Of a DNA stretch of 39,989 bases, positions 1 through 37,316 are shown piece after piece. Position 1 is the first letter of the stretch. Each line of letters starts with the position of its first letter. Below the pieces are notes generated by a model. The model did not search any database. It saw nothing but the letters and a program-made list of their open reading frames with translations, and was not told where the DNA came from. The stretch lies in NCBI GenBank assembly GCA_031268005.1, contig JAIRYA010000025.1:1-39989 (forward strand), in the 5' to 3' direction. The DNA is from Puniceicoccales bacterium (GTDB lineage Bacteria > Verrucomicrobiota > Verrucomicrobiia > Opitutales > LL51). A program made the translations under genes and the position numbers.

Positions 1-909
1 TATTCGCCATCCTTCATTGGATTATCCAATTACGGCAACACATGTTTTGCGAATAGCAGTCTGCAGTTTTTATATTCCATTCCAAGCTTCAGAAATGGTA
101 TCCTACAATACAACGGTGCGAATTCTCGCATTCGAAATCTCAAAACGCTGTTTTTATGCATGCAAAACAATAAAAATATAGGCGCAGTAAGTGACAATCA
201 AATGAAAGATTTTTTACTTCCATTGCTAGGGAGCCTTGGATTTAAGACAGATGCTCAACATGATGCGCAGGAATTTATGATAGGTCTTTTAAATTTCATA
301 GAAAGTCAAATTCCGGGAGCTATGAAAAGCTTTCAAGTCCAAACTCTTCGGACCATAACGGCTACTGATGGAAGTAAAGATCCTCCGCCAATAAAAACCA
401 GCCTCGAAACGGCCCCTATGATTCAATTGGCGGCAAAAGACGGCAGCGGTAATGAAATCTCTTCCCTCGGCGATGCGCTAAAAAAATTCATTGAAAAAGA
501 ACTTATGACCGGCGACAATCAGGTTAAGTTTTCAGACGGAATAAAAATGGACGCAGAATCGGTTACAAAAATAGAAAGTGTGCCCGCAGTTGTCCTATTT
601 CAGTTCAATCGATTTCAAAACGATGGGAGAGCAAGTAGTAAACTGAATCACCCAATTGACATCCCCTTTGAACTTGATTTAAGGCCTTACTGTTCAAATA
701 ATCTATCCGTTAATCTGGAGCTTTTCGCCGTTATCCAACACGGCGGTGGAGTTTCCGGTGGACACTATTTCGCCCATGTTAGGGATAATTATTCCAATAA
801 ATGGATATGTTTTAACGATTCAATGAGAAGTTTCGTAAATGACAATGAAGCAATGAAAAAAGCTTTCAATGAAAATGCATATGTGGTGGCATACCGCCGC
901 AAAAAATGA
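1..909 (+). CDS. Eukaryote-type ubiquitin-specific protease (peptidase C19 / USP), 5'-partial
   Basis: Frame 1 is open from base 1 (YSPSFIGLSNYGNTCFANSSLQFLYS...), so the Met at 160 in the ORF track is internal and the gene starts upstream of the window. Cys box GNTCFANSSLQ, QHDAQEF box, His box HGGGVSGGHYFAHVRD and WICFND motif are all present. Confidence 0.85.
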   Translation, partial: YSPSFIGLSNYGNTCFANSSLQFLYSIPSFRNGILQYNGANSRIRNLKTLFLCMQNNKNIGAVSDNQMKDFLLPLLGSLGFKTDAQHDAQEFMIGLLNFIESQIPGAMKSFQVQTLRTITATDGSKDPPPIKTSLETAPMIQLAAKDGSGNEISSLGDALKKFIEKELMTGDNQVKFSDGIKMDAESVTKIESVPAVVLFQFNRFQNDGRASSKLNHPIDIPFELDLRPYCSNNLSVNLELFAVIQHGGGVSGGHYFAHVRDNYSNKWICFNDSMRSFVNDNEAMKKAFNENAYVVAYRRKK

Positions 910-1004
910 TGTCCTGCCACGAACGAAAAAGTCTTTACATTAACAATAAAAAAATTATTTATAAAATAAAAATTATCTGCGATGGATAGGGTTACATTAG
1001 GAAT

Positions 1005-2741
1005 ATGAATCAAATTTTAAAAGTCTGCATTTTTGCTATTTTTCTATCCTCCCTCCTGGGAGGCGATGCCTATTCTGGTCCCAAAAATATTAGCAAAAAG
1101 TCCCATGGGAGACAGTTAGGATTAAAAAAGCTTCGCAGGACGAAAAAATCTCTCGAATCAAAAAAAAGGCAGGCAGTAAAAAAATCTCGCAAATCGAGCA
1201 ATGACAAGAAAAAGACACAACCTCGAGCCTTAAGTCCTAAAAGAATTACCTTGCCAGCGAAACTTCTGCCGAAAGCAGTAAATCCAAAATCTCTCGGATC
1301 AAAAAAAAGGCAGACAGTAAAAAAATCTCGCAAATCGAGCAATGACAAGAAAAAGACACAACCTCGAGCCTTAAGTCCTAAAAGAATTACTCTGCCAGCG
1401 AAACCTCCTCCTAAAGCAGTAAAGCTGCCCCCAAAACCTCCTCTATCGGCGGCGAAAGTAATTTCGCCGCCGTTCACAAAACTTATTTCTTTGCCAGCGA
1501 AACCTACTTCGAGCATAACAAGTTCAACGCCCAAACATCTCCCATTGGTGGCGGAACCTCCTCCGAGCATAACAAGTTCAACGCCAAAAACTCCCCCATT
1601 GGTGGCGGAAGTAATTTTGCCGCCGTTCACAAAACTTATTTCTTTGCCAGCGAAACCTACTTCGAGCATAACAAGTTCAACGCCAAAACATCCTTCAGTG
1701 CCTCCGAAAGAAGCAAAGCTGCCCCCAAAACCTCAGCCGAAGGAAACGAGTCTGTCTGTGCCGTTGCCCACTACGACGCCTTTGACAAAGCCAATCATTA
1801 ATAATAAGTATTCGCCATCCACCATTGTATTAGCCAATTGCGGTAGTACGTGCTTTGCGGATAGTGTTTTGCAGATTTTATATTCCATTCCAAGCTTTAG
1901 AAACAGTATGCTGCAATACAACGGTAGGGATCCTTGCATTGAAAGACTTAAAAAGTTGTTTTTACACATGCAAAATAGCAACGCCATAGATCAAACTTGG
2001 CTAAAAGAGACTTTATCTTCATTATTTAGTGCTCTAGGAAATATTTATACACTAGACATTGAAAGTGACGCGCGGGAGTTTATGCTGAATCTTTTAGATT
2101 TCATAGAAAATAAATTTTCGGGATCTACGAAAAGCTTTCGAGGAAAAAATTCCACAACCATAGCGTCCCAAAACTTGGAAATTTCAAAAACTGAAGATCC
2201 TTTTACAATAATTTCCCTGCCATTGAAAGATTTCACATCCCTCGTCAGAATGGTGGTAGATCTTTTTCATGAACTGGAAATGGACTATGTGCTTGAGAAT
2301 GAAAGCTCCGTCCCAGCGAAAATGTCCATGAAAATAGCAGATATTCCCGAAATCGTAGCACTAAGCCCTAATCTACTTGTGCACGGTTCAAAAACTGGCA
2401 CACAAATAAAGCTAAAAAATTCGATTAGCATCTCATTTGAATTAGACCTGGGGCTCTACTGCTCCAATGAACAAAAAGTCGATCTGGAACTTGTCGCACT
2501 CAACGTACACATCGGAAATGGTTCATCCGGACACTATGTGGCATTTGTTAGGGATGAAAATAATAGCCAGTGGATACTCTTCAACGATCTTGAACCTTCG
2601 CCTAAAAGTATGAGTAAAGAAGACATGATTAAAGGCTATTTTCATACGAGTAGTTGCCCTTCCTATGGTGGCTTTGCAAGTCCATACCTATTAATATACC
2701 GCCATAAAAAGGGATGTCACTGTAGTAAATGCAAAAAATAA
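1005..2741 (+). CDS. Secreted repeat-containing ubiquitin-specific protease (peptidase C19 / USP) family protein
   Basis: N-terminal hydrophobic signal-like segment MNQILKVCIFAIFLSSLLGG. About 240 aa of K/P/S/T-rich repeats follow. C-terminal USP domain has Cys box GSTCFADSVLQ, DAREFM box, His box HIGNGSSGHYVAFVRD and WILFND motif. Confidence 0.85.
   Translation: MNQILKVCIFAIFLSSLLGGDAYSGPKNISKKSHGRQLGLKKLRRTKKSLESKKRQAVKKSRKSSNDKKKTQPRALSPKRITLPAKLLPKAVNPKSLGSKKRQTVKKSRKSSNDKKKTQPRALSPKRITLPAKPPPKAVKLPPKPPLSAAKVISPPFTKLISLPAKPTSSITSSTPKHLPLVAEPPPSITSSTPKTPPLVAEVILPPFTKLISLPAKPTSSITSSTPKHPSVPPKEAKLPPKPQPKETSLSVPLPTTTPLTKPIINNKYSPSTIVLANCGSTCFADSVLQILYSIPSFRNSMLQYNGRDPCIERLKKLFLHMQNSNAIDQTWLKETLSSLFSALGNIYTLDIESDAREFMLNLLDFIENKFSGSTKSFRGKNSTTIASQNLEISKTEDPFTIISLPLKDFTSLVRMVVDLFHELEMDYVLENESSVPAKMSMKIADIPEIVALSPNLLVHGSKTGTQIKLKNSISISFELDLGLYCSNEQKVDLELVALNVHIGNGSSGHYVAFVRDENNSQWILFNDLEPSPKSMSKEDMIKGYFHTSSCPSYGGFASPYLLIYRHKKGCHCSKCKK
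1146..1404 (+). repeat. Intragenic direct repeat, ~118-bp block repeated with a 141-nt (47-codon) period
   Basis: 1146-1263 and 1287-1404 are near-identical by eye. Both encode SKKRQxVKKSRKSSNDKKKTQPRALSPKRITLPAK. Confidence 0.85.
1458..1690 (+). repeat. Intragenic direct repeat, ~80-bp block repeated with a 153-nt (51-codon) period
   Basis: 1458-1537 and 1611-1690 are near-identical and encode PPFTKLISLPAKPTSSITSSTPKH. Shorter SSITSSTPKxxPLVAE units lie between them. Confidence 0.8.
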
Positions 2742-4731: not shown

Positions 4732-5064
4732 ATGAGTATGCCAACGGATATAAACAATCCCAATCATATTGATAGGCAGGCTATAGAAATTTTCTCAAAT
4801 GAAAGGATCTCCTGTGTCATCGGGGAAGATATTGAAAAAAATTTTGAGGACCTCACGGAAAGTGAACGTGATAAGTTAATAAAAAGTTTCATGCAGCTCC
4901 AAAATGATTCTGATGTTCGTAGTGTTCGCGGTGTAACTGGTACCACGACATTGATGATATCGAAAAATAGGGCAGCAAGTTTGGAATTTTTCTGTCAAAT
5001 AAAGATCACCGACCAACGGGAACTTGTCCAATTCGAAATTCGGAAGCTTGATATTGTGGAATAG
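4732..5064 (+). CDS. Hypothetical protein (orphan, 110 aa)
   Basis: Only long ORF in this interval. Acidic and helical N-terminal half. No motif recognised. Confidence 0.45.
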   Translation: MSMPTDINNPNHIDRQAIEIFSNERISCVIGEDIEKNFEDLTESERDKLIKSFMQLQNDSDVRSVRGVTGTTTLMISKNRAASLEFFCQIKITDQRELVQFEIRKLDIVE

Positions 5065-5415
5065 CAACGGACAACGGCGATGCTAGGGTGGCTAGGAATT
5101 GCATTGTAATAAAAAAATAAATTTTTATTAATATTTTATTGAAATAATAAAATTATTAAGTATTATTTACCTCGGAAAGTGGCAAGCGTTTGTTCATTTT
5201 TCGAGGTATTTTTATTAAAAACAGAAAGGATATGCAATGAATAACAATATAAAATTAATGATATTAATGGGAATGGCTCCCTAATAGCCAATGAAAATGT
5301 AAAAGCTACGCTAGAAACTACAAATATAGAAAATAGAGTATTTTTAGAAAACAATTGGCTGAAAATTACCATACCTAATCAAGTATGGCAAAATCATTTT
5401 CTGAAAAATCAACCA

Positions 5416-6000
5416 TTGGAAACGAATTATGATGAAATTGAAAAATGGCTCTTGAATTCTTTTTCTCCAGACAACGGAACTCTGACTATTTTGCTTAAAG
5501 ATACTCGTAAGGTTATATTACATGACTCTAATTTCGATTGGAATGCTACCAATGCTCTCATTACTTATAATATCGAAAAAATAACAATTCTTAACTCAAA
5601 ATTATCAGAAGAATTAACAAATTTAACATATAAAATAACGTATAAAAATTTTAAATATGATCCAAATGCTAAGGAAAATAATCAAAATATCATAAATAAC
5701 ATCGACGATTTTGTCGAAAAATTTACGAATGTAGACAAAAAATTTGATCAAAAAATAAAAAACATGATCGAAATTATGAGACAGGATCCCCTTAATAAAG
5801 AATCTAATCATGAGCTCCTTACCGATTTTCATTCACTAAAAGGAAACCTCAAGGGATATTACGCAGTATCAACAAGTGATGGCGGAAGAATCGTCTACAC
5901 GCTCAATAACGATATTGTGGAAATAGTTGGAATAAGCGATGTTCATAACTATAAAAAAATCGCAATAAATCATTTAGAAAGCAAAAAACAAAACAAATAA
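5416..6000 (+). CDS. RelE/YoeB(Txe)-like toxin domain protein with an unknown N-terminal extension; 5' end uncertain
   Basis: The C-terminal ~85 aa (FVEKF...DQKIKNMIEIMRQDPLNKESNHELLTDFHSLKGNLKGYYAVSTSDGGRIVYTLNNDIVEIVGISDVHNY) follow the RelE/ParE/YoeB pattern L-x-G-x-L-x-G-x-Y...R-I-V-Y...I-V-x-I...H-x-Y. The ORF-track start is TTG. The same frame is open back to 5245 without an ATG. Confidence 0.6.
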   Translation: METNYDEIEKWLLNSFSPDNGTLTILLKDTRKVILHDSNFDWNATNALITYNIEKITILNSKLSEELTNLTYKITYKNFKYDPNAKENNQNIINNIDDFVEKFTNVDKKFDQKIKNMIEIMRQDPLNKESNHELLTDFHSLKGNLKGYYAVSTSDGGRIVYTLNNDIVEIVGISDVHNYKKIAINHLESKKQNK

Positions 6001-6285: not shown

Positions 6286-6948
6286 TCAATAGTATTTTTT
6301 TAAATAGTTTACCGGATCGTCGCACTGCCTCGGATCCACGTCGACGGCGATGGTACCGTTCTTTAGTAAGATAATTCTATCGGAAATTTTCGTCAAAAAA
6401 TCCAAATCATGGGAAGCAATGATCATGGTGACGCCGAACTGTTCGTTGACGGATTTCAATAGGGAAACGACGTCCATGGTCGTCGATACGTCCAAACCGG
6501 AGGTGGGCTCGTCGCAGAGCAAAATATCCGGATTGGTTATTAAACTTCTCGCCAGGGCAACTCTCTGTTTCTGCCCTCCCGATAGAGCCACCGGATATTT
6601 TTCCGCTTTGGATCCAATTCCGAGATTTTTGAGAATGCTTTCCGCCTGATTTTTGTGCTCTTCCTTTTTATCCCTATCCTTTAAATCGGGGGCGTAGGTC
6701 AAATTTTGTAGCACGGTCATGTGGGGAAAGAGCTGGAAATCCTGGAACATAAAACAAACGCGGCCGTTGCATTCCATGGTGCCTTTATCGAAGGATTCCA
6801 GTTTTTGGATACAGCGGAGAAGCGTCGATTTCCCGCAACCGGATGGCCCCGCAAGACCTAGGATGCCAGATTTTTTTATGTCGAAACTGATATCCTCCAA
6901 CACCTTTACATCATTAAATGACTTGCAAATATTATAAATTTTTAGCAT
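6286..6948 (-). CDS. Polar amino-acid ABC transporter ATP-binding protein (GlnQ/ArtP/HisP type)
   Basis: Walker A GPSGCGKST, signature LSGGQKQRVALARSL, Walker B ILLCDEPTSGLD. Start set to MLKIYNICKSF (6948) rather than 6987, leaving a 17-nt overlap with the upstream permease. Confidence 0.9.
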   Translation of the reverse strand: MLKIYNICKSFNDVKVLEDISFDIKKSGILGLAGPSGCGKSTLLRCIQKLESFDKGTMECNGRVCFMFQDFQLFPHMTVLQNLTYAPDLKDRDKKEEHKNQAESILKNLGIGSKAEKYPVALSGGQKQRVALARSLITNPDILLCDEPTSGLDVSTTMDVVSLLKSVNEQFGVTMIIASHDLDFLTKISDRIILLKNGTIAVDVDPRQCDDPVNYLKKYY

Positions 6949-7585
6949 ATAGTTTTCGCTTTTCAATTTTCTTTCCAATGAATTCAATCAATAGCACGAG
7001 ACCGTAGTAATATGTGGCAGCCATACACAATGGTAAAAAATAATCGCACCGAATCAATGAAACCATCTGGGCCTTTCGCATAATTTCTATGCCTCCAATC
7101 ATGGGAATTACGGCGGTCATCTTAATGATGTCGATCATTTCATTGAGTAAAATGGGAAGAATATTCATGGTAACCTGGGGCAAAATAATATCCTTCCACA
7201 TGTAAAAACGAGGAATTTCTAGGGTTTTTGCGGCCTCGAATTGCCCCTTCGGTAAATTTTCTATGCCCGCTCGAAATATTTCCGCCACATAGGCAGAACT
7301 GTTAATTCCAAAAGCCAAAATACCCGCCCATAAAACGTTGAGCTTTAGTCCAAACTTTGGCATCACGAAATAGATAAAAGTTAGTTGCAAAACGAAGGGC
7401 GTTCCCCTTAAAAAGGAAACAATTCCGTTGATCATCCACCTCCCTATTCCGTTGTATCTCAGGACCGCCAGTAGGGCGCCCAAGAAAATTCCGATGAGAA
7501 TCCCTCCGATGGCCAGCGCCAGGGTAAAGGGAAGCCCACCTCCAATGCGGAAAAAATCGGAAATTATACTGTTACTTTCATTCAT
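6932..7585 (-). CDS. Polar amino-acid ABC transporter permease (His/Glu/Gln/Arg family), copy 1
   Basis: 217 aa, multi-TM. Motif INSSAYVAEIFRAGIENLPKGQFEAAKTL is typical of the HisM/GlnP EAA loop. Confidence 0.9.
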   Translation of the reverse strand: MNESNSIISDFFRIGGGLPFTLALAIGGILIGIFLGALLAVLRYNGIGRWMINGIVSFLRGTPFVLQLTFIYFVMPKFGLKLNVLWAGILAFGINSSAYVAEIFRAGIENLPKGQFEAAKTLEIPRFYMWKDIILPQVTMNILPILLNEMIDIIKMTAVIPMIGGIEIMRKAQMVSLIRCDYFLPLCMAATYYYGLVLLIEFIGKKIEKRKLYAKNL

Positions 7586-8360
7586 CGGGCATTGTCCATT
7601 CTTCTTGTAAATTCCATTTTTCTTTTAGCGCTTTCAGCTCCCCATTCGCCCCAAGCTCCCTTAAAATTTCATTAAATTCAACCCTAAGGGGCGACCCCTT
7701 TGGAAAGGCAAAGGCAACACCCTCGGTTTCACTCCTAAGATCAAATGCGGAATATTCAAACTCCGGATATTTTTGGCAGTAGATGGGGGTCATACAGGCG
7801 TCTATGTAGACGGCTTTCACTTGCCCGGATTTTAATGCCTCTATGGCCGTCGTTTGATCGTCGAATGGAACTAATTCCGAATCGGACATATTTTTTCCCA
7901 GCAGCTTTGTCATTATGGGATGCATCGGATAGGAAATTTTTTCCCCGCGAAGCTGATCCCTATTCACTATGTAATCGCTTTTTTTAAACATGAAGAGCAT
8001 CATTTCCGGATAATAGCTCACACTATAGTCAATCCCCTGGCGTGTTTCGGGAAAAATGCCCCAATTTTCGAAGGCTACGTCAATCTTTCCCGTTTGCAGC
8101 GCCGTGGGAAGCAATGGGAAACCTATGAATGTGAAAGTAGCTTTTTTTCCAAGTTTTTCGGCGATAAGTTTGGCAAGTTCGACTTCGAAGCCCCCATGAT
8201 TACCATTTTCATCGAAGTACGTCATCGGTATAACTCCCCCTTCCGTTCCAAACCTAATCGTACCATTCTCTTCCTCTCCGCTATCTTTTCCATTCCTTAG
8301 CAATAAAACTATACCCATTACAAGGGTAATCGCCAAAATCAAAATCGCACACTTTTTCAT
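7578..8360 (-). CDS. Amino-acid ABC transporter substrate-binding protein (SBP family 3), copy 1
   Basis: Signal peptide MKKCAILILAITLVMGIVLL, then IRFGTEGGVIPMTYFDENGNHGGFEVELAKLIAEKLGKK, typical of SBP_bac_3. Overlaps the permease start by 8 nt. Confidence 0.85.
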   Translation of the reverse strand: MKKCAILILAITLVMGIVLLLRNGKDSGEEENGTIRFGTEGGVIPMTYFDENGNHGGFEVELAKLIAEKLGKKATFTFIGFPLLPTALQTGKIDVAFENWGIFPETRQGIDYSVSYYPEMMLFMFKKSDYIVNRDQLRGEKISYPMHPIMTKLLGKNMSDSELVPFDDQTTAIEALKSGQVKAVYIDACMTPIYCQKYPEFEYSAFDLRSETEGVAFAFPKGSPLRVEFNEILRELGANGELKALKEKWNLQEEWTMPDE

Positions 8361-8571
8361 AACACCCTAGTGTAATTGTAAATGATTCCAAAATTTCAAA
8401 CCTATAATTCAAAAAAAATGCATTATTATAAAAACCTATGGCGTCACTTTGAATGCAACGGAAAAATATCGACTTTTCGCCGACAAAAAGTCCCCCGAAA
8501 GCGAAAATGTTCAATTTTTTTAACACCCTTATATAACTAAATATTTCATAAACATCACGAATCTTTAGCAT
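8361..8571 (-). pseudogene. Decayed remnant of a second ABC ATPase (glnQ-like) gene
   Basis: The reverse complement of 8522-8571 (atgctaaagattcgtgatgtttatgaaatatttagttatataagggtgtt) aligns ungapped, 35/50 identical, with the 5' end of the intact ATPase gene (reverse complement of 6899-6948). It occupies the same syntenic position with the same 17-nt overlap with the permease stop. No Walker A follows, and only ~210 bp remain. Confidence 0.55.
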
Positions 8572-9202
8572 ATGGCTTCCATTTTTCAATTTTTTTTCCA
8601 ACAAATTCGATGGATAAAACGAGGCCGTAGTAATACACACCCGCCATGCAAAGCGGCATGAGATATTCGTATTGTTCCGCCGCAACCGTTTGAGCTCTTC
8701 TCATAATATCCAAACCGCCAATCATGGCGATCAGTGCCGTTTCCTTAAGCAAGGCAATCACCTCATTGACCATAGCCGGAAAAATATTGGCGATCACCTG
8801 GGGTAAAATGATATCCTTCCACATGTAAAAACGCGTAATCTCAAGGGTTTTCGCCGCCTCAAATTGCCCCTTGGGCAGACTTTCGATGCCGGATCTCAAT
8901 ATTTCCGCCACATAGGCAGAGCTGTTGATTCCAAATGCCCAAATACCCGCCCATAGAAAGCTGAGTCTAAATCCTAGGATGCTCGGCGCTATGAAATAGA
9001 TAAAACTCAATTGGAGTATGAGCGGTGTTCCCCTTAAAAGGGAAATTATTCCAGTGATAATCGGCCCGGCGATGCCACTGTATCTCAGCACGGATAATAC
9101 AATACCTAGAATTGTTCCAATGAAAACCCCTCCAAATGTCAGCTGCAATGTGAGGAGGACTCCGGATCCGATGTATAGAAAATTGGGAATTACTTTATTC
9201 AT
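8555..9202 (-). CDS. Polar amino-acid ABC transporter permease, copy 2
   Basis: 215 aa, clear paralogue of 6932..7585. Shared strings include INSSAYVAEI, ESLPKGQFEAAKTLEITRFYMWKDIILPQV and YYYGLVLxIEFxGKKIEK. Confidence 0.9.
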   Translation of the reverse strand: MNKVIPNFLYIGSGVLLTLQLTFGGVFIGTILGIVLSVLRYSGIAGPIITGIISLLRGTPLILQLSFIYFIAPSILGFRLSFLWAGIWAFGINSSAYVAEILRSGIESLPKGQFEAAKTLEITRFYMWKDIILPQVIANIFPAMVNEVIALLKETALIAMIGGLDIMRRAQTVAAEQYEYLMPLCMAGVYYYGLVLSIEFVGKKIEKWKPYAKDS

Positions 9203-9968
9203 CTGCCAATTTCCAGGTTTCTTTCAGCCCCCATTTATCTTCTAGCATCCGCAATTCTCCACTGGATTCCAAATTTTTTAAAGTTTCATTGATTTCGTTT
9301 TTCAACGGTGAACCCTTGGGAAGGGCCATGGCTATGCCCTCACTAATTCTCAGAGAATCCAGTGAAAAATAGGTCAATTCGGGATTTTCTTTGCAATAAA
9401 TTTCGGCCACAAATACGTCCATGTAAACGCATTCCGTTTGCCCGGCTTTTAAGGATTCTACGGCAAGGCCCATTTTATCCATGGAAACTAATTCCGCATG
9501 GGGTAGTTTTTCTTCCAGGCATTTTTTGATTCGACCGCTGAGCTGATAGATAATTTTTTTCCTAGAAAGCTGCCCTTGGCTTCCTATGGGATCGCTTTTT
9601 TTGTGCAAAAATACCATCTTTTCGGGATAGTAGGAAAGTGTGAAATCGAATTTTTTCCTCGATTCCGGGGTTACACCGAAGGCCGCGATAATCACATCTA
9701 TGAATCCCTTTTCCAAAGCCACCGAAAGGAAATCGAAATTCATATCATCAAAAATTGCATTTTTTCCGAGTTTTTCGGCTATAAGCTCGGCCAATTCGAT
9801 CTCGAATCCCGTCATCTTCCCTTCCCGATAATATTCCATGGGCGGATAGTCGGCGGAGGTCCCAAATCTTATGGTGTTGCTTTTTTCTCCATTTTTGCGA
9901 TTGAACGACACAAAAACAATGGCCGCTGCGACCGTAAACAACAACGCCCATAAAATATATTTTTTCAT
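9195..9968 (-). CDS. Amino-acid ABC transporter substrate-binding protein (SBP family 3), copy 2
   Basis: Paralogue of 7578..8360 (IRFGTSADYPPMEYYREGKMTGFEIELAELIAEKLGKN). Start set to MKKYILWALLF (9968) by analogy with copy 1; the ORF track extends to 9986. Confidence 0.85.
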   Translation of the reverse strand: MKKYILWALLFTVAAAIVFVSFNRKNGEKSNTIRFGTSADYPPMEYYREGKMTGFEIELAELIAEKLGKNAIFDDMNFDFLSVALEKGFIDVIIAAFGVTPESRKKFDFTLSYYPEKMVFLHKKSDPIGSQGQLSRKKIIYQLSGRIKKCLEEKLPHAELVSMDKMGLAVESLKAGQTECVYMDVFVAEIYCKENPELTYFSLDSLRISEGIAMALPKGSPLKNEINETLKNLESSGELRMLEDKWGLKETWKLADE

Positions 9969-10169
9969 ATCTTTTCCGAAATTCATAGTAAATTTACTTC
10001 GAATGCAAAGTCGAAATTTGTTTTTTTTAAATTATAATATCTTGAAGCTTTACCAGCAGAAAATGCGGCGGCGGAGTTAAACTTCATCGCCCACCGAAAA
10101 AAAATTCCATCCCTAGCATTTATAAATATAGGGATTGACCGCATCTCCTTTTTTCTTGGACTAGAGTTA

Positions 10170-11345
10170 ATGGATCGGGATGGTTTTACACTGGAAAGGA
10201 AGTTTATTCGTAGGTTGAAATATTTGCCAGCGATTTTTTCGTTGGATGTGATGGTTTTTTTTGCTTTGCCAACGCTTTCTGCCAGCGAAGGGTCTACCGA
10301 TCCAGCCCATAGGAGCCGGCAATATTCAAAAATAAAAAAAGATGATGCGCTGTCTTGTCCCTCGCGGGTGAGGCACCTTTCAAAGGAATTTGCCTGGACA
10401 TTGAGAAAACAATTTTCCCTCCCATTGGACGAAGAACAAAATGTTTCAGAAAAAAAAGAAGCGAAGGCACTAGCCGAAGAATTGATCGAAATTTTAAGTG
10501 AATTTGTCGTCTCCAATTCGGATTTAATCCTCCTTCATCTTTCGTCGGCGAAGTTGCATAAAACAACTCATCGGGAAATTTATAGGGAAGTTTCTTGCCT
10601 CGCCTTGGAGCAAATCTTTTCCATGGCGCTGAGTTTGGGCTGCATCGATGAATTGGTAAAACAATTAGAGGAAGGCCGTGAAGGTATAGTACTTATAAAA
10701 CTGCGCGATAAACTCGAAACGACTACCCATATTTCGACAATTATAGAGGAAAGCGAAGAACCCAAGAGAAAATTTTCAGAGCGGCATGCGGAACTCATGA
10801 GCAATGAAATTTATTTAATTACTTCGAGCTATAAAAAACTATTCAACTGGAATGGTCGAGAAATAATACCGCTTTCCTCCGAAGTCATTGCCCTGATAAA
10901 CGAAACCAGAAAATGTGTCTCGAAATCACTATTGCCTTCGACGCTACTGGATTCCTTTCTGTATACATTGGCAACTTTTATTGTCGTTGAGTCCAATAGA
11001 ATTGCCGAAACATCGCCCGAAAAATTTATTTTTGACATCTACACATCCACCGTTTATACCGCATTACAAAACATTTTGCCCATGGTTTCAGTTTCCGGGT
11101 TGACATGGGGATTTGCCAATTCGTTGAAAAACAATAAATCTAAATCAAAAATTAGTAAAAAATTAAAGTCTCTATTCCAGGAAAAAGCGCCCCACATCCT
11201 AAATAACCGCGGGGCAGTGGAGGAAAAAAGATATATAAAAAATCAAATGCATGACATTCATGCGAAACTTCACGAGGTCGTTAAAGAATATTTCAGCGTA
11301 TTTCACAAGCGAAAAACCTTCGGTTCCATTCCTTCCCCACTGTGA
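10170..11345 (+). CDS. Hypothetical protein, probably secreted
   Basis: 391-aa ORF with a signal-like segment LPAIFSLDVMVFFALPTLSASEG; the true start may be the Met at 10251. Largely helical, with no recognisable motif. Terminator-like hairpins follow. Confidence 0.55.
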   Translation: MDRDGFTLERKFIRRLKYLPAIFSLDVMVFFALPTLSASEGSTDPAHRSRQYSKIKKDDALSCPSRVRHLSKEFAWTLRKQFSLPLDEEQNVSEKKEAKALAEELIEILSEFVVSNSDLILLHLSSAKLHKTTHREIYREVSCLALEQIFSMALSLGCIDELVKQLEEGREGIVLIKLRDKLETTTHISTIIEESEEPKRKFSERHAELMSNEIYLITSSYKKLFNWNGREIIPLSSEVIALINETRKCVSKSLLPSTLLDSFLYTLATFIVVESNRIAETSPEKFIFDIYTSTVYTALQNILPMVSVSGLTWGFANSLKNNKSKSKISKKLKSLFQEKAPHILNNRGAVEEKRYIKNQMHDIHAKLHEVVKEYFSVFHKRKTFGSIPSPL

Positions 11346-11475: not shown

Positions 11476-11687
11476 AATGAGTCTTTTTGGGAATTAGAGC
11501 TCTTTTTAAGACAGTGGGAGGGAATAGCATCGCGTTAAAAATTTTGGCGAAATTTTGGGTTTTCCGCTTTTTACTAGTATCGCAGGGGACTATTTTTTTC
11601 TTGGACTAGAATAAAGACTAAAAATAATATTTTTTTACATAAATGTATTGTAAAAATAATTTAATTTATTATTTTATTAAATTATCT

Positions 11688-13751
11688 ATGAAAAAATTTA
11701 TAAGCATACTTGTTTTGGCGTGTGTGGGACTGGTTTCCTTCGGCGCGGAAATGGAAAATAGCCCCCTTGTTCTCCAAGATTTACGTGGCAATTCCCATGT
11801 TGTACCCTGGTTTAGGAATATACAACCCGATCTGTTGCACCTTATTAGGCGCAGCTATTGGCTTACAAAGCGTTCCTCCGAAAATAATTTTCTGCGGGAA
11901 AATCAAATGTTAAATGGCAACGACCACTTGAAAATAAAAGAAACGGGGCACCAATGGTTTTGTGATCGCAATTTTACTGGAATTCATGGAAAAATTGAGG
12001 GCACTTCCTGGATTCGTACGGCACTAAATTACTTCATGGAGTGCTTGACCTGTGGAAATTTTCAAGCCGAACTTGATTTCCCCGGATTTGTTGCCCTAAA
12101 ACAGCCTACGGATGACTGCGAATACTACGTCATTAGCGTCGTATTTAGGGGTTCTCAAAGTGAAGATTTTCAACCGAAGTCGGGAATGCTCGGAGCGAGT
12201 TGGGCGACCAATTATGATGCGCTTCCCCTTGCGGTCGATCCCTTGGCATACGGATTCGAAGGGACTATGCACAGCGGTTATCTGACAAAGATGAACTATT
12301 GCAATGCTTCCCGCGATGATCTCCTTGAAATGGTCGATCAGGGTGAAATTAATAATCCGCTCAAAACCATTTCCAATCTGAATTTCATCAATCCTCTCGA
12401 TGAAAGCATTGGGCGTATAATTTCAACTATTCCGGAAGAGGAGCGATTCAAGATCCGCTTTGTTGTAACCGGGCATAGCCAGGGTGCAGGATTGGCTCAG
12501 ATTGGTTTACCCCATATGATTAGGCACTTTGGAAAGGAAATTCCCGGCTTTGTGGATAATATTTCGACGCCAAGATTTTTTGGATATTTTCTATCGGCTC
12601 CCCACGTCGCCGCCGGTCAGGAGACGGTGAATAATTATGCTAATTTCGTGGGCTACGATAATATGATCACCCACGCTGCCTTTCGCGATATTGTAACCAT
12701 TGCTTCCCTTCCCAATTATATGATCCTCGGTCACTTTGCCTGCGATTCGGCATATGACACTATTTATCGCGGAATTTGTTCGGAAATTGCCTACAATAAT
12801 CGCCTGTTTTTGCTCAATTTTTTTAAAAATTGCCTCGATAGGGATAGCTTTGATAGGGATGATGCAAACCATTGGCGTTATCGCGAAGATCCGGATTTAG
12901 TCATTTGCTGGAGAGAAATAAAAAATATTTTAAATTATATCGATTTTTCATACGATGGCATTGGGAAAGATGGCATTGTGCAAATACTCAATCTGGGACT
13001 TGATTGCTACCACAAAAGAAACAAAATGCCCGAAACGGATCATTTTTTCAGGGAAGATCAGGTACCCTTTAAAAACCAGATGGATTGGGAAAAAATTCGG
13101 GATATTTGTCGCGGGGATCTGCATCCCTCGGAAATTCGCCTTGACGGAGATCGTTGTGCCATTATTCATCGCATCGTCGAGAATATCCATGGGGACACGG
13201 TCACTTTTTCATCGGATGGAACATTTAATATTTCTTCCCTAATCGACACGGTATTGGATTTAATGGACGCGGAACATGGCTCGGAAAATCCAGGCGGATT
13301 TAGGGAATATCTTAGGCGAATTTTTTGCTGTTCCTGCTGCTGGGGTGAAGAGCCAAAGGCGTCGTCATCGTTTATATTTGATCCAAATTTTAGAGAATTG
13401 CTTGCGACAAATGGTATCCATCCGGAGGATTATGGCATTACGCCGGCGGGGCGCGTATCCCTAATTGCCTATTTACACTATGGCTCCAAGTCCTTTGAAT
13501 CCACTTTATTCGATGAATTTTTACCTTCTCGCAACTTAGATTTTGCGCTAAAAAATGGGAAAATTGCCATGAATGATGCACATCCCCTATTACATTCGGA
13601 AATAGGTGACCCTATGGCCGAAAACAATGCCGATGAAAATATTGTGTCTTTAAGACGAGTTAGCGATAGTTCTGCGCACAAAGGGATAATTCATAGCAAA
13701 ATATCAACTATTCATTTTCCATTAAACCTTTATCACGAAGGAATAGAATGA
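11688..13751 (+). CDS. Secreted class-3 (fungal/eukaryote-type) lipase family protein with a long C-terminal extension
   Basis: Signal peptide MKKFISILVLACVGLVSFGA; start chosen at 11688 rather than 11643. Nucleophile elbow VVTGHSQGAGLAQ (GHSxG) sits in a Lipase_3-like context (VISVVFRGSQS...). About 400 aa lie C-terminal to the catalytic core, including a CCSCC cluster. Confidence 0.8.
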   Translation: MKKFISILVLACVGLVSFGAEMENSPLVLQDLRGNSHVVPWFRNIQPDLLHLIRRSYWLTKRSSENNFLRENQMLNGNDHLKIKETGHQWFCDRNFTGIHGKIEGTSWIRTALNYFMECLTCGNFQAELDFPGFVALKQPTDDCEYYVISVVFRGSQSEDFQPKSGMLGASWATNYDALPLAVDPLAYGFEGTMHSGYLTKMNYCNASRDDLLEMVDQGEINNPLKTISNLNFINPLDESIGRIISTIPEEERFKIRFVVTGHSQGAGLAQIGLPHMIRHFGKEIPGFVDNISTPRFFGYFLSAPHVAAGQETVNNYANFVGYDNMITHAAFRDIVTIASLPNYMILGHFACDSAYDTIYRGICSEIAYNNRLFLLNFFKNCLDRDSFDRDDANHWRYREDPDLVICWREIKNILNYIDFSYDGIGKDGIVQILNLGLDCYHKRNKMPETDHFFREDQVPFKNQMDWEKIRDICRGDLHPSEIRLDGDRCAIIHRIVENIHGDTVTFSSDGTFNISSLIDTVLDLMDAEHGSENPGGFREYLRRIFCCSCCWGEEPKASSSFIFDPNFRELLATNGIHPEDYGITPAGRVSLIAYLHYGSKSFESTLFDEFLPSRNLDFALKNGKIAMNDAHPLLHSEIGDPMAENNADENIVSLRRVSDSSAHKGIIHSKISTIHFPLNLYHEGIE

Positions 13752-14703
13752 GGTCATTCACATTCTTTGCGTTCGGAACATTGGACATGGACATTTGCTT
13801 CCATACTTCCCTTACAAAGCTTTCATCCAAGGAGTTTTTTTCAATTCCTTCAATCTCATCATCCCCAATTTCCCTATCTTTTGCGAAATTTCTCATAATA
13901 CCTTGCATAATACCTTGCAACTGTCCTCTCAGTTCCACGCGTTTTAGTTCGTCGCCATAGCCATCCACCTCCTCCTCTTCTTTGACGTACTCCTCCCGTT
14001 TTTTGGGGTCTAGGCCGATGTATTCCAACTGGCGGAGAACTTGCTCCATTCGCATGGGCATGCCGAGATCCCTGCAGCGCCCAATCTCTCCTCCATCGAA
14101 GCGATCGGAATACTTTATTATATAGTACCACCATTCCAAATCGGACAGTTTTCTCTCCACGGGAAATTTGAGCTCCCCGATGCCTTTTCCCTTTAACTCC
14201 ACCTGGATCAAATGAATCCCCTTCACCGTTTCGTAGGGGAGAAGCTGACCATTTTGACCCGCTTTTAGGGAAAATTTATTGATCATTTCGTAGTACTTCA
14301 GCGCCGAATCGCCGTTCGTGGAATAGTCCACGAATTGTATGGCGTAGACATCCTTTATCTGGGGCGCCCATTGCCCCCCCTCAAATTCCTGGTTGGCGAA
14401 GGTCGACGCCGCGTAGAACAGCACCCGCTTGTCAAAATTAGTGTGGTGAATCACCTGCATGTCCACGATGATGTGCTCCCGCCTCTCCGATATGGCGTGG
14501 TAATCCATGGATGCAAAGGAATTGTAGCCCCTCAGGGGGATTTCCAATCTCTCCTGGTTCGTGGCGATGGTTACGGGGGCAACACCCACGTGGCCTAGGA
14601 GTTCGTTGATCAGCGTCTCCGCCGTATCCGGATCGGACAGCATCCTCTTGAACCCGACGTCGCTCGTCGCCCGTATGAATCGCGTATTGCTTTCCCTATG
14701 CAT
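13708..14703 (-). CDS. PD-(D/E)XK nuclease family, Rpn-type recombination-promoting nuclease / putative transposase
   Basis: N-terminal SDVGFKRML motif. Core is MDYHAIS...IIVDMQVIHHTNFDKRVLFYAASTF (D...D/E-x-Q...R..FY). C-terminal tail is shared with 37317..38660 and 38712..39989. Confidence 0.8.
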   Translation of the reverse strand: MHRESNTRFIRATSDVGFKRMLSDPDTAETLINELLGHVGVAPVTIATNQERLEIPLRGYNSFASMDYHAISERREHIIVDMQVIHHTNFDKRVLFYAASTFANQEFEGGQWAPQIKDVYAIQFVDYSTNGDSALKYYEMINKFSLKAGQNGQLLPYETVKGIHLIQVELKGKGIGELKFPVERKLSDLEWWYYIIKYSDRFDGGEIGRCRDLGMPMRMEQVLRQLEYIGLDPKKREEYVKEEEEVDGYGDELKRVELRGQLQGIMQGIMRNFAKDREIGDDEIEGIEKNSLDESFVREVWKQMSMSNVPNAKNVNDLILFLRDKGLMENE

Positions 14704-29005: not shown

Positions 29006-29710
29006 CTATGAAGTCTCTTCGTCGCTTTCCTCCAGTTGGGCGGAATTTTTATCCTTTTCGGGAATCCACTGCGGATTGACCACTCCCCCCGAAATGATCA
29101 TTTTCATTCCATCGGCGACGGACATGGCTAAAAATATAACGTCCTCCCGGGGAACAAACAGCAAAAACCCACTCGTCGGATTGGGTGTCGTTGGAAGAAA
29201 AACATTGATGACTTGTTCCTTCGTTTTGACTTGAACTTCCCCCATCGTCTCACTGGTTAAAAAGCCGAGGGCATAGCTCCCCTTACAGGGATACTGAATC
29301 AGTACGGTCGTTTGGAAGACGGCCTCCCGATTTTTACTGAATGTTTCGACGATCTGTTTCACCGTTTTGTAGACACTATTCACAAAGGGCACGCTTTCGA
29401 TGAGCTGTTCCGTCAGGCGAATAACTGTTTTTCCTAAAAAATATTGCGACAAAAATCCGAGTACGGTAATAATCCCAACGATAAAAATCGTGGAAAATAG
29501 ATTAATCACCGTATTCATCCAGAATTTATCCGGAATTTTTAAACCAAAACAATCCAATAAAAATCGACTCGATGGCGCTCCCACATAATCCAGCAATAGG
29601 GTCACGACAATGGCGGTAATCCCCAGGGGAAGTAGGATGAAAAGTCCCGTAAAAAACCAATTCTTAATCATCCTAAATAAATGCGGAGACTTTCTACTTT
29701 TTTTAGCCAT
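29006..29710 (-). CDS. DUF502 family membrane protein
   Basis: The N-terminal IKNWFFTGLFILLPLGITAIVV motif and two-TM plus soluble-domain layout are typical of DUF502. Confidence 0.7.
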   Translation of the reverse strand: MAKKSRKSPHLFRMIKNWFFTGLFILLPLGITAIVVTLLLDYVGAPSSRFLLDCFGLKIPDKFWMNTVINLFSTIFIVGIITVLGFLSQYFLGKTVIRLTEQLIESVPFVNSVYKTVKQIVETFSKNREAVFQTTVLIQYPCKGSYALGFLTSETMGEVQVKTKEQVINVFLPTTPNPTSGFLLFVPREDVIFLAMSVADGMKMIISGGVVNPQWIPEKDKNSAQLEESDEETS

Positions 29711-29760
29711 GCTTTAACTCTATAAATTACTTGGAAAATACAATGTTTTTTTATTCAATT

Positions 29761-30183
29761 TCAAATCAATCCTATGCAACGCTCCCCATTTTTCTTTGCC
29801 ATGATTTGAATATTTTGCGTCATATTCCCCTCCAATTCAACCAAATTCTCCGCCCATTCTACGACAATTACAAAGGGATGCTGGGCATAGTCTAAAACAC
29901 CCAAATACTCCCCTCTTTCCAGGCGATAGGCATCGATGTGAATCAAATTCATTGTCCCCGCATAGTGCGCCAGAATATTAAATGTCGGACTTGTTAGGGG
30001 TTCCCCAATCCCCAAAGCCCTTGCTATACCCTTCGCAAAGGTTGTTTTTCCGACGCCCAAATCCCCGCGCAAAGCAATGATAGTGCCATCGCCTAGCAAT
30101 TTTCCAAAGGCTTCTCCGAGGGCGATCAAATCCTCCGCCGTTGGACAAATAATTCCCTTTTTTAATCTCTCTTTCAATGTCAT
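29761..30183 (-). CDS. tsaE: tRNA threonylcarbamoyladenosine biosynthesis ATPase TsaE
   Basis: LRGDLGVGKTTFAKGIARALGI, SPTFNI and HIDAYRL. Start set to MTLKERL (30183); the ORF track extends to 30249. Confidence 0.85.
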   Translation of the reverse strand: MTLKERLKKGIICPTAEDLIALGEAFGKLLGDGTIIALRGDLGVGKTTFAKGIARALGIGEPLTSPTFNILAHYAGTMNLIHIDAYRLERGEYLGVLDYAQHPFVIVVEWAENLVELEGNMTQNIQIMAKKNGERCIGLI

Positions 30184-30295
30184 ATGCCATTGGAATGGCA
30201 ATGGAATGGGATAAGCCATGAAAAGCAAGATAGTAATTTTCCACAGCATTCCTGAAGCAAATTCTTTTTGGAAAAAATTCTCTTTTTCTCAAACA

Positions 30296-30432
30296 AGACT
30301 TCTCTCCCTGCCAAAACCAGTGGAGATTTTCTCTTGGTTTTGGCTGAAAGAGGTCAAGGCGTTTGTGACTCCTTGCAGGCGCAGGACAGCGTTCTGCAAG
30401 CAGGCGACGGAGTCCCGTGGCAAGCCTAGGGA
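30296..30432 (+). repeat. Diverged third copy of multi-hairpin repeat module A
   Basis: gccaaaaccag...ttggttttggc hairpin (30310-30344), ggctgaaagaggtcaagg, ctccttgcagg...ctgcaag hairpin (30369-30400). Collinear with 17225-17380 and 17581-17740 but much more diverged. Confidence 0.55.
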
Positions 30433-30527
30433 ATTTACTCTCTCTTCGGCATTTCATCCCATTGCCTAAGTCGAAGGGGTAGCGAAAATATTAAAAAAAA
30501 TTTTTCTAAAATATTTAATAAAAGAGT

Positions 30528-30555
30528 TTGACAAGGTTGGAGATGGATTTAGGTT
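30528..30555 (+). promoter_or_regulatory. Sigma70-like promoter candidate for rplM-rpsI
   Basis: TTGACA (30528-30533), 16-nt spacer, TAGGTT (30550-30555). Strongly AT-rich UP-like tract at 30485-30525. Confidence 0.4.
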
Positions 30556-30574
30556 GGCAGGGGTTGGGTGTTCC

Positions 30575-31006
30575 ATGAAGACAACTTTAGTAAGAAAAGA
30601 AGATGCACAGAATAAGGCATGGCGTATCGTTGATGCGGCCGATATTGTGCTGGGAAAGTTAGCAGTAAAAGTGGCGAATGTGTTGCGCGGAAAGGATAAG
30701 CCAACGTTTACACCCCACGTTGACAACGGTGATTTTGTGATTGTTATCAATGCGGAAAAGGTGAAAGTTACGGGAAAGAAGGAACTCGATAAGAAGTACA
30801 TGTTTTATTCGATGTACGTGGGAAATGAGAAGCGTATTTCCCTAAATAGGATGCGGGTGCGCCGTCCGGAATTTATCATTGAACATGCGGTAAAAGGTAT
30901 GCTGCAAAAGAATCGCCTTGCAAATGCCATGGTTCGAAAATTGAAGGTGTATGCGGGTGCAGAGCATCCCCACGGGGCGCAAAAACCGAAACCGTTAGCC
31001 ATATAG
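30575..31006 (+). CDS. rplM: 50S ribosomal protein L13
   Basis: WRIVDAADIVLGKLAVKVANVLRGKDKPTFTPHVDNGDFVIVINAEKV is canonical uL13. Start set to MKTTLV (30575). Confidence 0.95.
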   Translation: MKTTLVRKEDAQNKAWRIVDAADIVLGKLAVKVANVLRGKDKPTFTPHVDNGDFVIVINAEKVKVTGKKELDKKYMFYSMYVGNEKRISLNRMRVRRPEFIIEHAVKGMLQKNRLANAMVRKLKVYAGAEHPHGAQKPKPLAI

Positions 31007-37157: not shown

Positions 37158-37316
37158 AGGGTATTTTATTAAAAATTAAATCAAAAGTCGTCGATGGCAA
37201 TTTTCCCATTGACAGGTGTATTTTATTAGGTTTTTTACGGCATTATTCGGTAATTTTTTTGATGGGTGATACTGTACCCAGGAAGAAAGCGTAAACAAGA
37301 AAAAAAGGCAAAAAGT

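Follow-up and report, generated by a model that had tools for sequence, protein, structure and literature searches.

Tandem genes for putatively exported ubiquitin-specific protease homologues in a Puniceicoccales bacterium

Introduction

Proteins of the ubiquitin-specific protease type (USP; peptidase family C19) are rare in bacteria but already known, with TssM, SnUSP1-3 and proteins of Amoebophilus and Cardinium as described cases. To our knowledge, only four bacterial USP-class deubiquitinases, TssM and SnUSP1-3, have been biochemically tested. SnUSP1-3 of Simkania negevensis (Chlamydiota) are active USP deubiquitinases (PMC10643670). TssM of Burkholderia pseudomallei and B. mallei is a fingerless, USP-class enzyme that is type-II secreted in a Sec-dependent manner (PMC10719079). 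In addition, ubiquitinyl hydrolases and eukaryote-like proteins with Sec signals are known from clostridial symbionts that live inside termite protists (PMC10579323).

Here, we analysed two USP genes that lie in tandem at the 5' end of a 39,989-nt stretch of DNA from a Puniceicoccales bacterium (Verrucomicrobiota, Opitutales, LL51; assembly GCA_031268005.1, contig JAIRYA010000025.1, positions 1 to 39,989 of the forward strand). The whole stretch is called the window, and the two genes are called copy 1 and copy 2. We read them as paralogous, exported, host-directed USP (C19) deubiquitinases of a Puniceicoccales/Opitutales relative of termite-flagellate symbionts, and we give this reading a probability of about 0.7. 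The isopeptidase activity, the substrate and the export route are inferred by analogy with the described systems, and the host from relatives.

Results

Both genes are predicted to encode complete USP domains

Sequence profiles and structure models confirmed that copy 1 and copy 2 belong to the USP/peptidase C19 family. Copy 1 matched the Pfam profile PF00443 (UCH/USP) over positions 1-254 of 254 with 144.8 bits (E 4.7e-42), and residues 276-565 of copy 2 matched positions 3-254 with 107.9 bits (E 8.6e-31), where the curated cutoff is 23.9 bits. No NCBIfam model matched either copy. A phmmer search against PDB sequences returned USPs only (USP47, USP18, USP8, USP7 and others), with E values down to 9e-21, and the Cys box of copy 1 was aligned with that of USP47. 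The Cys, His and Asn of copy 2 were placed in the columns of USP7 C223, H464 and D481, with Asn527-Asp528 facing D481-D482. The first-pass annotation, made from the letters of the DNA, had proposed two USP genes with the full catalytic signature. All motifs that it quoted were found, and the whole-profile matches and the alignment of the catalytic Cys, His and Asn-Asp to USP7 bore it out. The coordinates are given in Table 1.

All catalytic residues were retained in both copies despite only 36% identity between their catalytic domains (BLASTP E 2e-50), and likewise in the relatives on contigs L004, L002 and L003. The acidic residues of the QDE box bind the C-terminal tail of ubiquitin in USPs (box definition in PMC3486910). 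The open reading frames (ORFs), the motifs, the family matches and the similarity between the copies are not explicable by chance.

Structure prediction was consistent with the profile matches. The AlphaFold2 model of copy 1 had a predicted local distance difference test score (pLDDT) of 88 and a predicted template modelling score of 0.87, with fingers strands at residues 113-144 and 185-203. In a Foldseek search, this model matched USP18 (5chv; E 1.6e-29, template modelling score (TM) 0.84/0.83 by the two normalisations), USP7 (0.85/0.79) and, similarly, USP2, so that the superposition on USP cores proposed as a check was obtained at TM 0.83-0.85. Since the TM to USP18, USP7 and USP2 was high whichever partner was used for normalisation, the fingers subdomain appears to be present. 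In the full-length model of copy 2, a helix was predicted at residues 2-17, residues 18-272 had no confident structure, and the USP domain at 273-570 had a pLDDT of about 90. Both copies are thus predicted to form complete thumb-palm-fingers USP domains. No CxxC pairs were found in the fingers region of either copy, which means that the four-Cys zinc ribbon is missing. This ribbon is also missing in USP7 and others, so its lack does not bar USP membership.

The reading frame of copy 1 was open at the 5' end of the window, and the 5' part of the gene lies beyond the contig. For copy 2, ATG 1005 was the sole in-frame ATG 5' of the Cys box. The best sigma-70-like match of the region was located in the spacer between the copies (TTAACA-16-TAAAAT, 940-967, 10/12), and AGGA was located at 999-1002 in front of copy 2; both are consensus matches only. 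The spacer was partly conserved with contig L004.

The public automatic gene calls give a different picture of these genes. Copy 2 was called as a protein of 277 aa starting at MLQYNG, and the relatives were called from MQNGN (P0001, P0002, P0004). These starts are internal Met codons 3' of the catalytic Cys, and the actual ORFs open far upstream. As the called starts lie past the catalytic Cys, the database entries resemble Cys-less fragments. In addition, an antisense ORF of 199 aa (1070-1669, minus strand) was a mirror artefact of the K/P-rich repeats of copy 2, and the same shadow ORFs were present on L004.

Copy 2 ended in a basic Cys-rich tail, KKGCHCSKCKK, with the counterpart KKECPCRTCKK on contig L002 (L002 positions 1282-1308); copy 1 had no such tail. 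A fourth conserved Cys was observed about 25 residues before the tail in copy 2 and in the L002 counterpart. From its sequence, the tail might form a small zinc site or serve in lipidation or membrane targeting.

A conserved signal-peptide-like leader precedes a polybasic and proline-rich region

The N-terminus of copy 2, MNQILKVCIFAIFLSSLLGGDA-YSG, had the n-h-c layout of a signal peptide, with a maximum 13-residue hydropathy of 2.5 and a presumed cleavage site before YSG. The same leader was found on the two genes of L004 (gene B, 92% identity to copy 2; gene A, 75%) and on L002 (62%). Canonical signal peptides were also found on five other Puniceicoccales USPs from four metagenome-assembled genomes (MAGs; contigs L007, L031, L047, L029 and L003). 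The conservation across paralogues and the canonical signal peptides of these five proteins support, at the sequence level, the Sec-type signal-like N-terminus that the first-pass annotation had assigned to copy 2, with the adjoining basic stretch as a caveat. The chlamydial USPs that were examined had no N-terminal signal peptides. Among the sequences compared, the leader was found solely before USP genes, and thus there was no evidence for a general effector leader.

The leader of copy 2 is followed by a polybasic disordered module (residues 27-130) with 28 K, 11 R and only 3 acidic residues, a net charge of +36, SPKR motifs and KKxxKK runs. A 141-nt tandem duplication was found in this part (1145-1423, 94%). 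The module was kept in at least three paralogues. The proline-rich linker behind it also contained internal repeats (1431-1539 versus 1584-1692, 93%). The USPs of related Puniceicoccales with ordinary, cleavable-looking signal peptides had no polybasic block. The block could be the functional heart of these proteins, either as a tether to an anionic cell surface or as a device for nuclear or chromatin targeting.

On L002, the USP gene that comes next (1527-1706) has a leader, ...LSSFLGCDTYSG, with a lipobox-like FLGC and an Asp after the Cys; the corresponding leaders of the window and L004 read LLGGDAYSG. Judged by this motif, some paralogues may be lipoproteins.

Table 1. Features of the tandem USP locus in window coordinates
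Feature	Positions	Strand	Remarks
USP gene copy 1, 3' part	1..909	+	frame 1; entire catalytic domain (302 aa) and stop (907-909)
Copy 1 Cys box GNTCFANSSLQ	34..66	+	catalytic Cys15, codon 43-45; oxyanion Asn10 shortly before
Copy 1 QDE box QHDAQEF	256..276	+	box definition from PMC3486910
Copy 1 His boxes HGGGVSGGHYFAHVRD (739-786) and WICFND (802-819)	739..819	+	His255 and gatekeeper Tyr256 in the former; Asn272 and Asp273 in the latter
Spacer between copy 1 and copy 2	910..1004	+	95 nt
USP gene copy 2, complete	1005..2741	+	578 aa; ATG 1005, stop 2739-2741
Copy 2 signal-peptide-like hydrophobic leader MNQILKVCIFAIFLSSLLGGDA	1005..1070	+	hydropathy; AlphaFold2 helix 2-17
Copy 2 polybasic disordered module	1083..1394	+	aa 27-130; AlphaFold2 pLDDT <50
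Copy 2 Pro/Ser/Thr-rich disordered linker	1395..1808	+	aa 131-268; 36 Pro
Copy 2 USP catalytic domain	1809..2741	+	phmmer alignment to the USP7 catalytic domain, full length
Copy 2 Cys box GSTCFADSVLQ	1842-1874	+	Cys283, codon 1851-1853; oxyanion Asn278
Copy 2 QDE box ESDAREF	2061-2081	+	D and E retained; first Q replaced by E
Copy 2 His box HIGNGSSGHYVAFVRD	2508-2555	+	His510, 2532-2534, then Tyr511
Copy 2 WILFND	2571-2588	+	Asn527/Asp528, 2583-2588
Copy 2 C-terminal basic Cys-rich tail GCHCSKCKK	2712..2738	+	

The array probably contains at least three genes

A metagenome contig of the Joint Genome Institute (JGI), L004 (2144 nt), contained a complete gene (gene A) whose product of 459 aa was 79% identical to copy 1 and of the same build. 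A second gene (gene B) with the same leader was located directly 3' of it. The last 115 nt of L004 (2030-2144) were identical to window positions 1-115. In the simplest reading, L004 is probably the left neighbour of the window contig in a conspecific population. On this reading, gene A, copy 1, copy 2 and tsaD would follow one another in this order, which probably gives at least three USP genes, and the joined copy 1 would probably be about 493 aa long with the same leader and linker. The upstream inspection that the first-pass annotation had suggested for copy 1 thus yielded an N-terminus through a probable join. In the stretch of the overlap, gene A itself has only 2 differences in 114 positions. 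Because the contig break falls exactly at a near-identical repeat, the join is probable and not proven.

Another short contig, L002, carries a copy-2-like gene whose catalytic domain is 48% identical to that of copy 2 and which has the same CxCxxCKK C-terminal tail. The two ends of this contig share a 65-nt overlap (1-65 and 1642-1706), as is typical of a collapsed tandem repeat. The contigs of these USP genes were observed to break where the catalytic domain begins with near-identical sequence.

The copies are similar in a mosaic pattern and differ in composition from the chromosome

The similarity between copy 1 and copy 2 was uneven. Positions 1-170 and 1809-1978 were identical at 133 of 170 nt (78%), in agreement with the earlier estimate by eye of about three-quarters, and an independent repeat search gave 79% for 1-167 versus 1809-1975 and 74% for 261-360 versus 2066-2165. 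The remaining DNA had diverged to 33-60% nucleotide identity per 30-codon block. At third codon positions, codons 1-30 and 91-120 had an identity of about 0.8, as against about 0.3 for the middle of the domain. Such a mosaic is explained by patchy gene conversion just as well as by divergence or selective constraint.

Between copy 1 and gene A of L004, the proportions of synonymous (pS) and nonsynonymous (pN) differences were 0.155 and 0.115, corresponding to a dN/dS of about 0.72, with unchanged catalytic motifs. Judged from the sequences, this is fast protein evolution. The dN/dS of copy 2 versus L002 was saturated and was discarded.

The GC content at third codon positions (GC3) was 0.37 in the USP genes and about 0.48 in the housekeeping genes. 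The correlation of relative synonymous codon usage with the housekeeping pool was 0.2-0.33 for the USP genes, the lowest of the longer genes, compared with 0.4-0.85. This composition is consistent with a foreign origin and names no donor.

The USP family is old in the Puniceicoccales

Among 1.8 billion representative proteins, an exhaustive search that used no profile found 15,859 matches, of which the sole close one was P0004, the product of gene A on L004. The best single-domain match outside the own family was P0019, a protein of a Puniceicoccales MAG, at 32% identity. The other matches with named sources were USPs of eukaryotes (vertebrates, choanoflagellates and amoebae) at about 30% identity, together with many unnamed metagenome proteins. 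A separate homology search with the whole of copy 2 gave no match, as its low-complexity N-terminus filled the list of candidates, and with the catalytic domain of copy 2 it returned only its own protein, one relative at 44% and one weak match. When the alignment of the close family was used as the query, the GTDB representative genomes yielded no member and the JGI metagenomes no more than one relative, at 24%.

A degenerate DNA pattern of the Cys box was then applied to the GTDB representative genomes and gave 42 loci, nearly all of which encode USP domains. They came from four Puniceicoccales termite-gut MAGs (six contigs), from Candidatus Paraimprobicoccus trichonymphae, from several Chlamydiota, and from Dependentiae, Cytophagales, other Verrucomicrobia and assorted gut MAGs. 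Tandem or multi-domain arrangements were found on L003/L016 (two genes), on L029 (two genes) and on L007 (JAIRZB010000102.1, a Glyptotermes MAG), where three ORFs contain four USP domains in 8 kb. One of the L007 proteins, 1294 aa long, combines a classical signal peptide with two USP domains, and the L007 expansion was stronger than the array of the window. In related MAGs, the USP genes adjoin fabH, an M23 peptidase gene or glgB. These bacterial neighbours argue against eukaryotic contamination.

A crude neighbour-joining tree (293 columns, 100 bootstraps) was used for well-supported shallow clades and not for the eukaryotic donor. Copy 1 was grouped with gene A of L004 (100) and copy 2 with L002 (100), and all four formed one clade (100). 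This clade was sister to the second genes of the Nc350/Ncb351 pairs (73), and the first genes of these pairs were placed in a second Puniceicoccales clade. These clades suggested that the USP family is old in the order and that the copies of the window arose by a lineage-specific duplication before the split from the organisms of L002 and L004. The tandem duplication with later divergence that had been proposed from the sequence was thus supported by the 100% bootstrap of the common clade, and it can be refined by a probable count of at least three genes and by the mosaic similarity.

The remainder of the window is an ordinary Gram-negative chromosome

The window contained tsaD, amino-acid ABC transporter genes, a Mip-like FKBP gene, an msbA-like gene, prmA, rpe, lptE, a gene for a BamD-like TPR protein, fabH, lpxK, holA, tsaE, rplM-rpsI, fabD, ispH, rpsB-tsf and tal. 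Apart from the USP genes, this content is that of an ordinary Gram-negative chromosome, and the neighbours tsaD, lpxK, lptE, rpsB, rplM/rpsI, ispH and fabH confirm the bacterial setting assumed at first. No tRNA, rRNA gene or other Rfam RNA was found in the window. IspH was 60-66% identical to that of several MAGs named Puniceicoccales bacterium, and FabH was 76% identical to that of MAG Ct408_bin149 from a lower-termite gut. In the MAG codes, Nc350 and Ncb351 denote Neotermes castaneus and N. cubanus, Ct408 denotes Calcaritermes temnocephalus and Gsp477 a Glyptotermes species, all of them flagellate-bearing lower termites of the Kalotermitidae (PMC11257099). LL51 and UBA9783, families of termite-gut Opitutales, are listed as endosymbiont lineages with reduced, low-GC genomes that carry NTT (PMC11257099).

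Ubiquitin-like, E1 or E2 genes were not found near the USP genes, whose neighbours are tsaD, a YoeB-like ORF and the ABC transporter genes, and the PADLOC defence-system models had no matches in the window. Both results speak against a bacterial ubiquitin-like or antiphage system.

Several other features of the window were observed. An AT-rich patch was located within 4732-6000 (GC 0.29 in 5001-6000). It contains a 194-aa ORF whose C-terminal part is weakly similar to the YoeB toxin (PF06769, E 2e-5, below the cutoff), with a 110-aa orphan ORF upstream. The codon usage here is unrelated to that of the rest of the window (r -0.04), and the patch may be a foreign insert of the toxin-antitoxin kind. 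The amino-acid ABC transporter locus (6286-9986, minus strand) contains a tandem duplication, with two pairs of solute-binding protein and permease genes followed by one ATPase gene. A gene similar to PD-(D/E)XK family transposases (13708-14703, minus strand; PF12784, E 2e-14) had the highest GC3 of the window (0.62) and is probably a mobile element. Three large orphan ORFs (10170-11345, 11643-13751 and 37266-38660; 391, 702 and 464 aa) had no Pfam, PADLOC or PDB match, apart from a sub-threshold class-3 lipase match of the 702-aa ORF. They could be further host-interaction proteins. The cumulative GC skew reached its minimum at about 29700-30600, and gene orientation changed from minus to plus between tsaE and rplM. 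Such a pattern occurs at replication origins and at strand-switch points; the window contained no dnaA.

Discussion

The results suggested a preprotein in four parts, a hydrophobic leader, a polybasic disordered segment, a proline-rich spacer and a USP domain. The leader would carry the protein over the inner membrane via Sec, and the protein might then be released, like the type-II-secreted TssM, or be tethered to the surface through its basic linker. Cys15, His255 and Asn272 of copy 1, or Cys283, His510 and Asn527 of copy 2, would cut the isopeptide bond after the Gly-Gly of ubiquitin. The presumed target is host ubiquitin or a close ubiquitin-like modifier (Ubl). Ubiquitin marks might be stripped from the symbiont surface or from host proteins, by which autophagic or proteasomal clearance would be blunted. 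Tandem duplication, patchy gene conversion and fast evolution would have given rise to the array, with three or more genes whose substrate surfaces diverge. The first-pass annotation had regarded the proteins as host-directed effectors of eukaryotic origin. Their host-directed role is reasonable by analogy, and the codon usage agrees with a foreign source; no donor was identified, and the family is already old in the order.

Several observations weigh against the proposal of exported deubiquitinases. Past the presumed cleavage site, the charge is about +4 over the first 18 residues and +36 over the 100 residues that follow. So basic a stretch is unusual in Sec substrates, and in model bacteria it impedes export by Sec. 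By the positive-inside rule, the leader could instead anchor the protein in the membrane and leave the USP domain inside the cell. Genes for secretion systems were not found in the window. The dN/dS of about 0.72 may mean relaxed constraint and not diversifying selection. The USP genes lie at a contig end, and their link to the chromosome is one assembly junction. In addition, the bacterium is related, as we infer, to reduced-genome symbionts of termite-gut flagellates, with its host and lifestyle drawn from relatives.

None of the alternatives fits the evidence better than the reading as exported deubiquitinases. It is unlikely, but deserves to be taken seriously, that the proteins are real exported USP-fold proteases whose substrate is NEDD8, a SUMO-like, Fubi/ISG15-like or protist-specific Ubl, or that the paralogues are split between ubiquitin and a Ubl. 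The top structural match was the ISG15-specific USP18, SnUSP2 cross-reacts with ISG15 and TssM with NEDD8, the QDE box of copy 2 is altered (ESDAREF) and the KRF motif is missing, and the paralogues are most divergent in the middle fingers/palm part. However, most USPs and all four tested bacterial USPs favour ubiquitin, in both copies the QDE box keeps its D and E and the catalytic His is still followed by an aromatic gatekeeper, and the match to USP18 is probably due to its compact size. The uncleaved anchor described above would place the USP domain in the cytoplasm or bind it to the own envelope, to act after lysis or vesicle release or on a bacterial substrate. The net +36 right after the hydrophobic helix is what the positive-inside rule expects of such an anchor, the FLGC followed by Asp in the L002 paralogue agrees with it, and the Simkania USPs have hydrophobic regions that are thought to attach to membranes. 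We regard it as improbable, given that no ubiquitin-like substrate or conjugation genes lie nearby, that related Puniceicoccales USPs have cleavable-looking signal peptides without the polybasic block, and that no USP substrate is known inside bacteria.

The genes might also be decaying, functionless relics of an old transfer under relaxed selection, a reading to which the dN/dS of about 0.72 between close paralogues, the atypical codon usage and the truncation by public gene callers would lend some colour. It appears very improbable because the ORFs are long and unbroken, the catalytic and oxyanion residues are all kept across copies of 36% identity and in relatives from other samples, the models are confident, the leaders are conserved, and the gene number is growing and not shrinking. 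A misjoin of protist DNA to a bacterial contig, by which the USP genes would not be bacterial at all, can hardly be credited. Their position at the extreme contig end, their higher AT content and divergent codon usage, and the many eukaryotes among the nearest relatives beyond their own clade (about 30% identity) could be explained in this way. However, the genes have no introns and are closely packed, with 95 nt between the copies, and their leaders are of bacterial type; USPs are embedded between fabH and M23 peptidase genes and beside glgB in independent Puniceicoccales MAGs; and the clades are specific to Puniceicoccales, with a Puniceicoccales protein as the closest single-domain match.

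A further idea concerns the polybasic module, which resembles histone H1 tails and nuclear localisation signals and might target the deubiquitinases to host nuclei or chromatin as an array of nucleomodulins. We consider this quite unlikely. If true, ubiquitin could be stripped from histones or other nuclear targets by an intranuclear or nucleus-manipulating verrucomicrobial symbiont of termite-gut flagellates. Intranuclear as well as cytoplasmic symbionts of termite-gut protists are known from the verrucomicrobial Nucleococcus cluster (PMC8204192).

The USP family of termite-gut Puniceicoccales/Opitutales is diversified, often in tandem and apparently exported via Sec. On the reading as exported deubiquitinases, the manipulation of host ubiquitin would be extended to symbionts of anaerobic flagellates and to the Verrucomicrobiota. 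The natural series of young paralogues is material for studying the divergence of USP substrate surfaces. Surveys that rely on public gene calls will miss these USPs or misjudge them as inactive.

Among the described systems, SnUSP1-3 share with the proteins of the window a full eukaryote-type USP domain, the canonical Cys and His, the aromatic gatekeeper, several paralogues per genome and N-terminal non-catalytic regions with hydrophobic segments, and Simkania lives inside eukaryotic cells. They belong to another phylum and show no detectable close relationship in sequence; the proteins of the window were not clustered with the chlamydial USPs in the neighbour-joining tree. Unlike SnUSP1-3, the genes described here are in tandem, have a common Sec-like leader with a polybasic/proline-rich linker, and encode enzymes of predicted activity. 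TssM is of the same USP class, and the Sec-dependent export that was shown for it is proposed here. However, the hallmarks of the TssM type, namely the deletion of the fingers, the Littlefinger loop and the N-terminal Ig-like domain, were not found in the proteins of the window, which are modelled with full fingers and a disordered N-terminal part.

The USPs Aasi_0770 and Aasi_1805 of Amoebophilus asiaticus and CAHE_0028 of Cardinium hertigii (PMC8831229, PMC3486910) are likewise predicted to be host-directed, in bacteria that live inside protist or arthropod cells. The C19 peptidase BED92619.1 of Ca. Paraimprobicoccus trichonymphae (P0028 on L037; PMC10579323), a Trichonympha endosymbiont of the termite gut, starts with a hydrophobic segment, and its identity to copy 1 is 28%. 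These proteins of Bacteroidota and Bacillota are encoded by single genes and have no polybasic module, and their function is predicted, as it is here. The eukaryotic USP7, USP18, USP2 and USP47 share the fold, the catalytic residues and the Cys, QDE and His boxes. In contrast, the identity to them is only 22-26%, and the domain of the window is minimal, with about 300 aa and without the zinc-ribbon cysteines. The usual accessory domains are missing, and a bacterial-type export leader is predicted instead. We found no report of USPs in Verrucomicrobiota in the searchable literature. Compared with all these systems, the lineage, the tandem array with a common leader and the polybasic/proline-rich module are new.

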